From: Candidatus Thorarchaeota archaeon
Lineage (GTDB): Archaea; Asgardarchaeota; Thorarchaeia; Thorarchaeales; Thorarchaeaceae
Length of the DNA stretch: 32,000 bases
Direction of reading: 5' to 3'
NCBI GenBank assembly: GCA_008080745.1
Contig: SHMX01000007.1
Coordinates: 102,794-134,793, forward strand
Shown here: piece after piece, positions 7,185-9,983 of the stretch
Position numbering within the stretch: the stretch's first letter is position 1
How the letters are laid out: each line of letters opens with the position of its first letter
Notes under the pieces: generated by a model
Told to the model about the DNA's origin: nothing
Database searches by the model: none
What the model saw: only the letters and a program-made list of their open reading frames with translations
Translations under genes and position numbers: made by a program

Positions 7185-7979
7185 TCAGTTGTCTAAAAAT
7201 TTAAGGTGCCCACTCTCTACGAGCTTGGACGTGAGAAATACTGTCACACTAGGCTCGTAGGGAACAGCTTCTTTTACCTCTCGAAATGTTTTCACTCCAT
7301 CAAAGGACTTGATGAGGTCTGGAGCTTCTATACTGATGTCTCCCCGCTTTTGAAGTATAAGGATGTCATCATCTCTGATGAGTCTTCTGAATTTGACCCA
7401 GCCATACCTGTGTAGAATGGAGAATATACCGAGTACCTCATTCTCCGGGATTGGTATTGAATCTAATATTTGTCTGACTGAACGTTTTCCATCAGCAAAT
7501 TTCAACAACCTCTCAATCTTCTCATCTAAGACACCGACTCTCCAATTGAATTCCCTCCCTCGTGTTGCAACTGGCGAGTAATCCAAATCTATGTCACCCA
7601 TGGGAAATTGTCTTAAGATAAAAAGAGCGTCTTCTTTGAATGGACGCATATCTCCCATGGTAAGGGTCTTTCGAGAATGCTTCTTTTCAAAATCATCTAG
7701 TATTATTTTCAGTTTGTCTTGATAGTTGGTAACATCATCTACTTTTCCGAGACCTGCTACAACAATAGAGAACTCTCCTCCCTCGAATATGTATCGTTTA
7801 TTTTGCCAGGCAATCTGCCGGAGTCCTTGACCCAAGAAATCCATAACCGCTCTAAAGAGAGCTGAAATAAGCGCTGGGTCGGTAATCATCTCTTGATATG
7901 GTAAGTTGAGAAGTGGTTCCCCTCCCTCTTTGTTCATAATCAAAATATGTCTAATCGTTGTTAGGTCGATTTGACTCAA
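7185..7979 (-). CDS. Longin-like domain + two winged-helix-like repeats (NPRL2-like architecture)
   Basis: N-terminal ~100 aa fits the longin pattern (HILIMNKEGGEPLL..DPALISALFRAVMDF..KRYIFE..SIVVAG). Two repeats FADGKRSVRQI...LHRYGWVKF and FDGVKTFREV...LVESGHLKF follow. GGAGG SD before TTG. Confidence 0.6.
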   Translation of the reverse strand: MSQIDLTTIRHILIMNKEGGEPLLNLPYQEMITDPALISALFRAVMDFLGQGLRQIAWQNKRYIFEGGEFSIVVAGLGKVDDVTNYQDKLKIILDDFEKKHSRKTLTMGDMRPFKEDALFILRQFPMGDIDLDYSPVATRGREFNWRVGVLDEKIERLLKFADGKRSVRQILDSIPIPENEVLGIFSILHRYGWVKFRRLIRDDDILILQKRGDISIEAPDLIKSFDGVKTFREVKEAVPYEPSVTVFLTSKLVESGHLKFLDN

Positions 7980-7991
7980 TCACATTCCTCC

Positions 7992-8255
7992 CTATTTACT
8001 CCTATTTTTCCTATTTAAAAAACATTCTTTCAAAAAACGAGCCAATTCTTCTATTGTTTCTTCTGGACTACCATCAGAAGTCCATACAATCCTAGATAGC
8101 TTGAATCCATAGAATTCTCGTAGAGCTACGATAAATGAAAGAATCAGAGATGGATCTATTACATCCTTTCTGTAAGCAGTTGATAGAATTTCCTCACTTG
8201 ATCTTTTACCTATAATTACTTGTCTTATTGGATCGGGAGAAGATATCTCATCCAA
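7992..8255 (-). CDS. Short longin-like paralogue (87 aa, internally deleted)
   Basis: Aligns by eye with both neighbours (IRQVII..Y..VIDPSLILSFIVALREFYG..L.RIVW) but lacks the following two strands. SD-like GGGGA upstream. Confidence 0.5.
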   Translation of the reverse strand: MDEISSPDPIRQVIIGKRSSEEILSTAYRKDVIDPSLILSFIVALREFYGFKLSRIVWTSDGSPEETIEELARFLKECFLNRKNRSK

Positions 8256-8323
8256 GCGAATCCCCTTTTACGTATACTGAAGGAAGAATAAGATAAATCT
8301 GCTGTACTTGAAGCATTTATTAC

Positions 8324-8728
8324 CTATGCAGAGAAATCACGAGTCATGCAGTCAGAGATATATCTTCTGATCATATCTTCCATCTCTTGTAGCATCGGAG
8401 CTTTTCCTGAAACTCTTACTCTCTCATAGTACGTAAACTCAAATTCGATCAGAATTCTTCCGAGTACATCTCGACAGTGTTGAATATTCTCCAAATCTTC
8501 AACTCCTGCAGCAATAATTGCTCGTTTTCCCAACTCGAAAACATATTGCTTCTCTTCAAGCGTGATTTGATAAAGCTGAGTTCCTATGAAGCCTGTCAGT
8601 GCTGTATAGAGGTCTGCAATGTCATCTGGGTCTGTCACACTCTCTTCATAAGGTACACTGATAATTGGCCCTTCTGTCTTATCCATAATTACTATATGCC
8701 ATATTTTCTTCGAGTCTAATTTATCCAT
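8324..8728 (-). CDS. Longin-like domain protein
   Basis: IWHIVIMDKTEGPII..DPDDIADLYTALTGF..KQYVFE..AIIAAG, paralogous to 7185-7979. Start placed at ATG8728 (MDKLD) by alignment to the paralogues; the ORF track extends to 8812. Confidence 0.6.
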   Translation of the reverse strand: MDKLDSKKIWHIVIMDKTEGPIISVPYEESVTDPDDIADLYTALTGFIGTQLYQITLEEKQYVFELGKRAIIAAGVEDLENIQHCRDVLGRILIEFEFTYYERVRVSGKAPMLQEMEDMIRRYISDCMTRDFSA

Positions 8729-8808
8729 GCTAACTAACCTGGGCCTATTCATAACTATTCTTCGGGCACTAATAAGATTGGGGATACCTATTAGGATATG
8801 TTGACCTA

Positions 8809-9983
8809 TCACTCAAGCAATCTATATTGTGATGTGACTAGTTTCCAGAGAAGGTCAGGATTGTCACTCGAGATGTTGGTCCCCTTGTTTGCAAGATAGC
8901 TCCATCCGAATAATGAGTCCACTCCTGTATTTTCATACTCTGGTATCAATGTAGCAACCTCCTCCTCTTTTCCTCTTGGTAGTCGAAACATCTGCAACCA
9001 GAGCTGATTCTTCTTCCCGTGCGTTCTTGCAATCGAAATAGTTCTCTGTGCAATATCCAATGCCCAATCTCGTGTCTTTCCAAAAACATGGTAATATGGA
9101 TCCGTGCTGAACATGTCTACTGTGGGCATAGCAGCTATTCTGTTCCAGTCTATGGTACAAAGGTTGGCCCCTCAATAGGTAGAACACAAACAGCAACCTC
9201 TGTTGACGTACTGGCAGACTTTATGGCTCTACAGGTATCGTTTAGGAACCGGAGCATGCTCTCTTCTCGAAATTTTTCAATCCGTTTAGAATAGTCAAAG
9301 GACATTGGTTCGGAGTATAATCTCTCATATTCAACTTGACATTCTTCACAGACGCATGTGAACTCGGATTCTGCAAGGAGGGGATAATAGTGTGGCTCAT
9401 CGAGAAAGACGCCATCAATCTTGGAATCTGCTACAGTTCTCTCAACAACCTCAAAAAAATATGAGTGAAACTCGCTACTGTTGATACATGCAGCGGGCAC
9501 CGCCTCTCTCGATTCAGCCGTAATCTGTCGGTAGTGGTGATTGTGATGTAGAAATTGAGAATATGTTTCATCACCAAACACACCACCAAATGCCCAGAAA
9601 TTTAATCAGACCTTCAATCCCACATCTCTGGCTCTATCGATGATCTCGAGCATATTGGGGTTGCAAACAGCTGTTGAAAACTTGGACATTGTTGGACAGG
9701 ATCTGATAGCAGCTTATATAGGGTGATACAGGATGAAGGTCTGGTCTACAGACATGGCATCCCTGACCAGGACAGAGTTTCACCCAGTACCGTTGCCTGG
9801 GAGGACACCGCTCTGATGTCCAAGTTTGTCCATAAACAATGAACGGTACCAATAATCCAGATCGTGTTCGGATGCTGCAATCAAAACCGAATTACAGTTG
9901 TGACTGAACATATCTTCAAAATCTGCCTGTGCATGTCTTGGTTGTTTGGAATGATGCCATGCAAATCCACGTTCCAATTCCAA
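8809..9983 (-). pseudogene. Disrupted TIM-barrel glycoside-hydrolase-like gene
   Basis: Three ORF-track fragments (9780-9983, 9150-9581, 8809-9129) join into one protein: ERGFAWHH..SEHDLDYWY|PNMLEII..KV*LNFWAFGGVFG..GVFLDEPHY..CVCEEC..DWNRIAA..FSTDPYY. Lesions are a 186-nt insertion (9660-9845), an in-frame TGA at 9606-9608 and a 1-nt frameshift near 9150-9160. Confidence 0.75.
9662..9844. mobile_element. Putative non-autonomous (MITE-like) 183-bp insertion
   Basis: Flanked by direct repeat GGT (9659-9661, 9845-9847). Perfect 12-bp subterminal inverted repeat AAACTTGGACAT (9678-9689) / ATGTCCAAGTTT (9816-9827). Removing it plus one repeat restores TGG TAC CCC AAT in the host frame. Confidence 0.55.

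Follow-up and report, generated by a model that had tools for sequence, protein, structure and literature searches.

The closest described relatives of the locus considered here are insertion sequences of the IS607 family, which have no terminal repeats, produce no target duplication, and carry a subterminal imperfect repeat at unequal distances from their ends (PMC6188088). Their transposase TnpA binds helically phased motifs, GG dinucleotides are present at the termini and in the target, and excision is scarless (PMC6188088). An IS607-type enzyme from Clostridium botulinum shows a preference for TGGG and excises a mini-element whose ends measure 60 bp (10.1101/2023.11.20.567912). In IS605 and IS607 elements, the guide consists of the DNA just beyond the right end (10.1101/2023.11.20.567912, 10.1101/2023.03.14.532601, PMC11061315). 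Gene-less palindrome-associated elements (PATEs) of the IS605 group retain both ends and “often encode omega RNAs” for TnpB in trans (Meers et al., 10.1101/2023.03.14.532601), and 36% of RAGATH-18 RNAs have no TnpB located beside them (Ren et al. 2024, PMC11061315). A 32,000-nt stretch of the genome of a Candidatus Thorarchaeota archaeon (assembly GCA_008080745.1, contig SHMX01000007.1, positions 102,794 to 134,793 of the forward strand), referred to below as the window, contains a GHL10-like gene interrupted by a short insert. This insert (window positions 9659-9847) is very likely a protein-less miniature derivative of an IS607-family element, i.e., of an element with a serine-recombinase TnpA and a TnpB. 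It is an ordinary kind of mobile element, neither a new recombinase system nor an archaeal mRNA intron, and the term miniature inverted-repeat transposable element (MITE) applies to it only loosely, in the sense of a miniature non-autonomous element.

The affiliation of the insert can be read from its longer relatives in the same genome (G000; 3.16 Mb in 19 contigs, 98% complete). The first 64 nt of the element, taken in the orientation of the interrupted gene, recur at three contig ends; at one of these, C5:1-590, they adjoin the 3' end of a tnpB gene, which at C5:1-555 abuts the right end of the element. A complete, albeit decayed, relative on contig C1 (∼300665-303310) has ends like those of the insert and encodes a protein with MerR-type helix-turn-helix (MerR-HTH) and resolvase regions, as well as a 712-aa TnpB (PF07282 and NF040570). 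Its tnpA open reading frame (ORF; locus L030, 3275-3640) matches MerR PF00376 and NF033518 (E 1.5e-20) and scores 23.1 bits with Resolvase PF00239, slightly below the 23.3-bit cut-off. The tnpB gene is located downstream of tnpA and reads toward the right end. A closer parent is split over the ends of contigs C16 (left end and tnpA), C5 (3' end of tnpB and right end), C1, and C11, and its tnpA on C16, at 116.7 bits, is above the cut-off. The sole other genome of the genus in the collection searched, GCA_014728035.1 (labelled Lokiarchaeota/Promethearchaeota and referred to below as G001), encodes an intact TnpA of 197 aa that follows a left end of this kind. The mini-element has ∼50 nt of the left end and ∼75 nt of the right end in common with these parents, the middle being unrelated. 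The initial annotation of this DNA, made from the letters alone, had predicted a non-autonomous element moved in trans and a longer parent with a transposase; protein-less copies have indeed been found alongside parents that encode a serine recombinase and TnpB.

The orientation of the element (the tnpB-sense strand) corresponds to the plus strand of the window, with the left border at 9659 and the right border at 9847. Its parts are as follows.

9659-9847, plus strand: the likely miniature element of the IS607 family, counted with the GGT of each border (delimited by its copies and the parent ends)
9658-9661, plus strand: left border, consisting of the target G and the GGT core, with the presumed GG crossover dinucleotide inside (24 reconstructed sites and the GG of IS607, PMC6188088)
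9682-9698, plus strand: left pair of TTGGACA motifs, spaced 10 bp (9682-9688 and 9692-9698), where TnpA presumably binds
9713-9720, plus strand: TATA-box-like CTTATATA, about 135 nt ahead of the right border
9741-9847, plus strand: structured RNA-like module, suggested by covariation
9817-9832, plus strand: right pair of TGTCCA motifs, with the same 10-bp spacing (9817-9822 and 9827-9832), likewise presumed to be sites for TnpA
9845-9847, plus strand: GGT core of the right border
9848-9867, plus strand: flank that, judging by its position, would be the guide sequence should the module be an omega RNA or reRNA of TnpB

The element is ∼187 nt long; one of the two border GGT triplets belongs to the target, so that the net insert amounts to 186 nt. 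The motif pairs are placed at unequal distances from the borders: the TTGGACA pair begins 20 nt inward of the left core, and 12 nt lie between the end of the TGTCCA pair and the right core. The TTGGACA motifs also occur in the left ends of the IS607-type parents, and the TGTCCA pair is kept in all 38 right ends of one of two right-end alignments (A1; see below). A 12-bp inverted repeat reported in the initial annotation (9678-9689, AAACTTGGACAT, the exact reverse complement of 9816-9827) is made up of one motif from each pair together with adjacent bases. Terminal inverted repeats are absent, as the ends GGTTGCAAAC.. and ..AATGAACGGT are unrelated to each other. The same annotation had noted the lack of a transposase and of true terminal repeats and had set the element apart from the classical DDE MITEs; this holds, as there is no target duplication either.

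These features bear on a reading of the insert as an IS200/IS605-type PATE, that is, an element moved in single-stranded form by a Y1 (HUH) TnpA, inserted 3' of a short target motif, and recognized through its subterminal hairpins. Such an identity, which was the initial guess, was abandoned upon sight of the serine recombinase in the parent. The association with TnpB, the absence of terminal repeats and duplication, the short fixed motif at both borders, and the hairpins would all be in accord with it. However, a search for the Y1 transposase (PF01797) that detected it in control genomes did not find it in the 98%-complete own genome, the gene beside tnpB in the parents codes for a MerR-HTH serine recombinase, and the ends, with phased direct-repeat motifs and a GG core, are IS607-like. 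The PATE identity is therefore considered very improbable.

Several additional features of the parents and of the assembly deserve mention. The TnpB-like ORF of the C1 relative (L030 1102-3240, corresponding to C1:300701-302839, minus strand) is ∼2 times longer than usual, and its N-terminal ∼470 aa match no Pfam family. The C1 element itself is located between pieces of a TldD/PmbA-like gene. The short contigs C14, C15, C17, C18, and C19 have a G+C content of 62-65% in a 41% G+C genome and probably come from another organism, as contamination of the bin.

The position of the insert is defined by the reading frame that it breaks. Read on the minus strand, the gene has the sequence ..GAT TAT TGG T/ACC GTT.. 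ahead of the insert and ..GCA ACC/CC AAT ATG.. after it (slashes mark the junctions), and deletion of 9662-9847 (186 nt, or 183 nt plus one ACC) produces TGG TAC CCC AAT ATG, so that the rejoined protein would read ..DLDYW/YPNM... The empty-site junction reads ..ATTGGGGT/ACCAAT.., whereas the joined (spliced) junction of the gene, if the insert were removed at the RNA level, would be ..TGGTACCCCAAT... The insert contains two in-frame stop codons, TGA at 9782-9780 and TAA at 9716-9714, and the reconstructed empty site contains the palindrome TATTGG-TACC-CCAATA. The frame-restoring junctions, the presence of two in-frame stops, and the palindrome had been described in the initial annotation, together with a proposal to align orthologues across the junction. 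In 11 aligned homologues, the sequence is uninterrupted through ..YW[YH]PN.. and has no additional segment; 12 full-length orthologous loci fetched from the genomes of other species, with codons readable at the insertion point in 11 of them, are likewise continuous through ..D-x-x-Y-W-Y-P-N.., and none carries the ∼62-aa segment that would have been expected of decayed coding sequence. Since the orthologues run continuously across this point, the insert, as judged from these alignments, is a true insertion and not a remnant of coding sequence. Misassembly, another concern of the initial annotation, finds no sign in its favor, because in contigs from two runs of one marine-sediment source study both flanks enter the element at the depth of the organism (∼125x and ∼45x). 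In both source runs, a contig at the same depth covers 9657-9689 and 9809-9847 without the stretch between them. The joined form, 9689 to 9809, was looked for in the assembly and is not present there; this contig joint probably comes from another copy of the element, with a middle too diverged to match at 90% likeness.

The own genome contains ∼16 copies of the element, 78-99% identical, with sharply kept ends (in the orientation of the host gene, ACCGTTCATTG...GCAACC(C)) and unrelated flanks. At least 21 copies are found in G001, and the terminal ∼65 nt occur in many genera of the same family, so the search for further copies with the same ends, suggested in the initial annotation, has been productive. 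The window copy has a 98-99% identical twin at C10/C11, and at least four of the G001 insertion sites are empty at the orthologous places in the own genome. Such presence or absence between congeners, together with the near-identical twins, speaks indirectly for mobility; the circular intermediate that would be involved is suggested by the family chemistry. Copies of the family are 186-188 nt long, and the window copy happens to have 186 nt; accordingly, the restoration of the frame upon its removal is a coincidence of length and has no special meaning. Several of the G001 copies are paired, 100-900 nt apart (loci L049, L053, and L061), which hints at local hopping or at insertion beside resident copies.

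In both species, the border triplet GGT is found on both sides of the element in all 24 reconstructed sites and is preceded by G in 22 of them, with nothing else conserved. None of these sites shows a target-site duplication; for the window copy, the empty site was checked against the orthologues. The initial annotation had viewed insertion into the loop of a hairpin as characteristic of the element. At the 24 sites, the longest perfect stem around the core averages 3.1 bp, versus 2.9 bp at all 14,921 GGGT sites of the genome; the window copy alone (1 of 24) has a stem of at least 6 bp, a length that 2% of the genomic GGGT sites also reach. A hairpin target was accordingly rejected as a rule for the family, as palindromes at the other copies do not exceed the background.

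The same data bear on the suggestion, also made in the initial annotation, that the insert resembles non-autonomous elements of the IS110/IS1111 type, which would be mobilized by a DEDD recombinase recognizing a short core and a hairpin target. The subterminal repeats, the short shared core, and the palindromic empty site at one copy fit that description. The DEDD transposase (PF01548), which was detected in control genomes, was not found in the own genome at its 98% completeness; both ends of the insert are common to elements encoding a MerR-HTH serine recombinase and TnpB; and palindromic targets are not enriched. The gene content of the parents refutes this reading, and the probability left to it is minimal.

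The two parts of the interrupted gene are located as follows.

9848-9983, minus strand: N-terminal 45 codons of the GHL10-like host gene, still open
8809-9661, minus strand: remainder of the host gene, with a nonsense codon and a 1-nt deletion

The gene codes for a protein of ∼327 aa that belongs to a family present in Loki-, Thor-, Hod-, and Hermod-archaeotal metagenome-assembled genomes; some of its members carry the glycosidase-like TIM-barrel domain GHL10 (PF02638). An extra stop has arisen at 9608-9606 (TGG to TGA) in place of a Trp residue that every orthologue has, and the frame is shifted by a deletion of 1 nt near 9156-9158 (..PTF-GT-IDW..). As judged from these lesions, the gene is a pseudogene. 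Compared to its G001 orthologue, the amino acid identity is 69%, the fourfold sites are 39% identical, the synonymous divergence (dS) is about 2.6, and the ratio of nonsynonymous to synonymous divergence (dN/dS) is 0.08; both genes are equally distant from the outgroups, with no acceleration of rate. The low dN/dS, the even rate, and the 67-77% identity that the N-terminal 45-codon piece still shows to distant orthologues argue for a recent disruption. The insertion would have disrupted the gene first, and the nonsense mutation and the frameshift would have been gained since. Correct identification of the element prevents misannotation of the split gene. Downstream, at 7185-8812 (minus strand), there are three neighboring ORFs of 264, 87, and 162 aa whose N-terminal segments are alike (..I.IM.K.EG.P....PY.E..TDP..I..L..A...F.G..L..I); they have the appearance of paralogues, and the 264-aa ORF appears to be syntenic in G001.

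A functional host gene would be expected if the insert were removed at the RNA level like an intron, either group I/IStron-like or of the archaeal bulge-helix-bulge type, as had been considered in the initial annotation. Removal would be exactly in frame, the flanking exons could pair (UAUUGG with CCAAUA), and IStrons are known within the IS607 family (10.1101/2023.11.20.567912). Against such removal stand the downstream nonsense codon and frameshift, the lack of a match to any Rfam intron family, and a length of 186 nt, insufficient for a group I core. When folded, the gene-sense strand (9630-9880) gives a z score of -0.92, not better than shuffled sequences, whereas the conserved fold described below is on the opposite strand, and no 3-nt/4-bp/3-nt bulge-helix-bulge that would yield the exact junction was found upon inspection. 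At 9 of the 12 other own-genome copies examined, the reconstructed empty junction is not crossed by any open frame that extends at least 20 codons in both directions. Intron-like excision can thus be regarded as extremely unlikely.

The family chemistry suggests how an IS607-type element of this kind would have moved. TnpA made elsewhere would bind the phased TTGGACA/TGTCCA motifs, excise the element as a circle, and then insert it by strand exchange at the GG of a target. Because IS607 TnpA can be expected from its family to act at GG, the ACC..ACC of the gene strand would represent the shared recombination core, GG plus T, and excision would leave no scar; the view of these triplets as a shared core and not a staggered-cut duplication had already been put forward in the initial annotation and is retained here. 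The 712-aa TnpB would use the structured module in trans as its guide RNA, with 9848-9867 as the guide and GGGT as the target-adjacent motif (TAM), and TnpB-guided action at this TAM would favor survival of the copy upon excision.

In more than 10 genomes, right ends were found that can be aligned over about 100-125 nt (alignments A1 and A2), and the predicted module consists of four helices.

9741-9746 with 9765-9770, plus strand: helix P0
9773-9778 with 9810-9815, plus strand: helix P1
9783-9787 with 9797-9801, plus strand: helix P2
9803-9806 with 9828-9831, plus strand: pseudoknot helix

Over these four helices, in the 32 sequences of alignment A2, 90.4% of the cells are paired versus 81.6% in shuffles, and the covariation score is 0.302 versus 0.133 in shuffles, none of 500 reaching it; slid controls give 0.04-0.10. 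In P1, 97% of the cells are paired and four of the six pairs show changes on both sides, with variants such as CAGAGU/ACUCUG, CAAAGC/GCUUUG, CCGAGC/GCUCGG, and GGGAGU/ACUCCC. C-G swaps with U-A in P2, and GGAC/GUCC swaps with GUAC/GUAC in the pseudoknot helix; P0 is less clean, with two subfamilies aligned in different registers. In P1, P2, and the pseudoknot, there are 22 G-U versus 9 A-C pairs, an excess that points to the tnpB-sense strand as the one that folds. On that strand, the ∼105-nt fold runs through the right end and stops at the transposon border. A TTTATATA-like box is present ahead of the right border in mini-elements from every genus inspected. With a strict pattern, it is found 133-137 nt before the border in 13 of the 29 loci and 122-126 nt before it in three more; looser variants in the remaining loci were judged by eye only. 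The box is located ∼23 nt upstream of the base of P0. Since the position, strand, structure, and promoter-like box all fit a small omega RNA or reRNA gene, the module is somewhat likely to be a guide-RNA cassette used in trans by the 712-aa TnpB. It should be useful for defining the omega RNA, and the GGGT TAM, of this unusually long archaeal TnpB.

The history of the insertion can be addressed with the G001 orthologue of the host gene (G001:C36; loci L047, 1-300, and L048), in which a member of the same element family occupies the identical nucleotide position, with identical orientation. The G001 contig begins inside the element, and its junction reads ..GCTACC/CCAATATG.. Searches of G001 with the N-terminal piece of the gene, the DNA upstream of it, and the ABC permease as queries found none of them. 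Over 138 nt, the same-site copy does not differ from at least four others in G001; it is 80% identical to the window copy. The two copies are of species-specific subfamilies. The site is interrupted in none of the 12 full-length orthologues from other species, and 10 of the 11 with readable codons have no GGGT there, the Tyr codon being TAT. Such a same-site copy points either to recurrent targeting or to an ancient occupied site.

One insertion ancestral to the genus, persisting in both species while the split gene stayed useful, would account for the shared nucleotide and orientation and for the uninterrupted state of the other 12 orthologues, and a single event is more parsimonious than two. 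The element provides an in-frame ATG (9689-9687), and the G001 frame is open for 302 codons. Persistence could have involved TnpB-guided restoration, with the copy being overwritten by newer ones. However, the copies are 80% identical although neutral divergence between the two species is saturated, as reflected in the fourfold-site identity and dS given above; each copy has counterparts in its own genome to which it is identical or 98-99% identical; and four other G001 insertion sites are empty in the own genome. The dN/dS value, the even rate, and the well-kept N-terminal piece also argue against a long-standing split. An ancestral insertion, also considered as an “ancestral master copy,” is accordingly regarded as improbable. 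Two independent recent insertions are the probable explanation, because neutral sites are saturated and yet both copies are young and nearly identical to copies in their own genomes, even though the chance of such a coincidence is ∼0.01-0.03 with about 15,000 GGGT sites. The site, TTGG-GGTA-CCAA, resembles inverted TTGG half-motifs of the TnpA box around a GG core. It is doubtful, albeit conceivable, that the W-Y-P-N codons constitute a preferred landing site, selected as a pseudo-recombination site or for DNA shape and not as “any GG,” or that the mini-element has been kept at, or driven to, this place by TnpB. A site preference, seen here in one case, is possible, and the shared occupancy offers a small hint that the choice of targets by IS607 elements is perhaps less random than “GG only.”

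Several points weigh against the interpretation of the insert as an IS607 derivative that carries a guide RNA. The assembled own-genome copies of tnpA are both truncated (C16:9311-9938, 150 aa, and C1:302850-303224, 121 aa), the C16 protein lacking ∼55 C-terminal residues relative to the intact TnpA of G001; no intact TnpA is present in the own-genome assembly, so that present mobility in this genome is conjectural. An intact copy may be missing from the assembly, given that the parent sequence is scattered over four contig ends. The contigs of the two DNA runs revealed neither an empty site nor a circle junction; they are uninformative on excision, as contigs drop rare variants. Occupancy of the same nucleotide in the congener misfits simple targeting of low specificity. 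The RNA is predicted from the position and covariation of the module, and an Rfam scan of the window copy and three parent loci, with E values up to 5-10, produced no match, RAGATH-18 included. Of the module, only P2, the pseudoknot strand, and the terminal ∼50 nt recur in the tnpB-bearing parents, where its part 5' of P2 has no clear counterpart.

Among the known systems, the insert most resembles IS607 elements, the comparison set being Helicobacter pylori IS607, IS1535, ISC1926, and the Clostridium botulinum IS607-type element with its 60-bp-end mini-element. Similarly to these, it has parents with a MerR-HTH serine recombinase and TnpB, lacks terminal inverted repeats and target duplication, and carries an imperfect subterminal repeat unequally distant from the two ends, motifs in helical phase, and short ends of the kind that suffice for excision in IS607, with GG at both termini and in a target resembling (T/G)GGG. 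Unlike the listed elements, it is a natural protein-less derivative of ∼187 nt in an Asgard host, with an internal TATA-like box, a 3-nt conserved core, GGT, in a GGGT target, and a partner TnpB of the unusual length of 712 aa.

The other comparisons are partial. Like the IS200/IS605 PATEs, the insert is a gene-less mini-element that keeps both ends; unlike PATEs, with their single-strand movement, Y1 transposase, and hairpin ends, it has ends and a parent of the serine-recombinase type. The lack of classical terminal repeats and the short core common to the target are shared with the IS110/IS1111 elements and their DEDD enzyme, but there are no loops here that resemble the target or donor loops of a bridge RNA, and the parents are of the IS607 type. 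Classical DDE MITEs have terminal inverted repeats and target-site duplications, both absent here. The predicted module resembles the RAGATH-18-derived reRNA of IS607 TnpB as a pseudoknotted structured RNA beside the right end, followed by the guide, and differs from it in the absence of an Rfam match and in a scaffold of about 105 nt versus 187 nt. Taken together, these comparisons describe an Asgard example of a gene-less element that unites serine-recombinase ends, a TATA-like box, and a covarying scaffold similar to that of a guide RNA.

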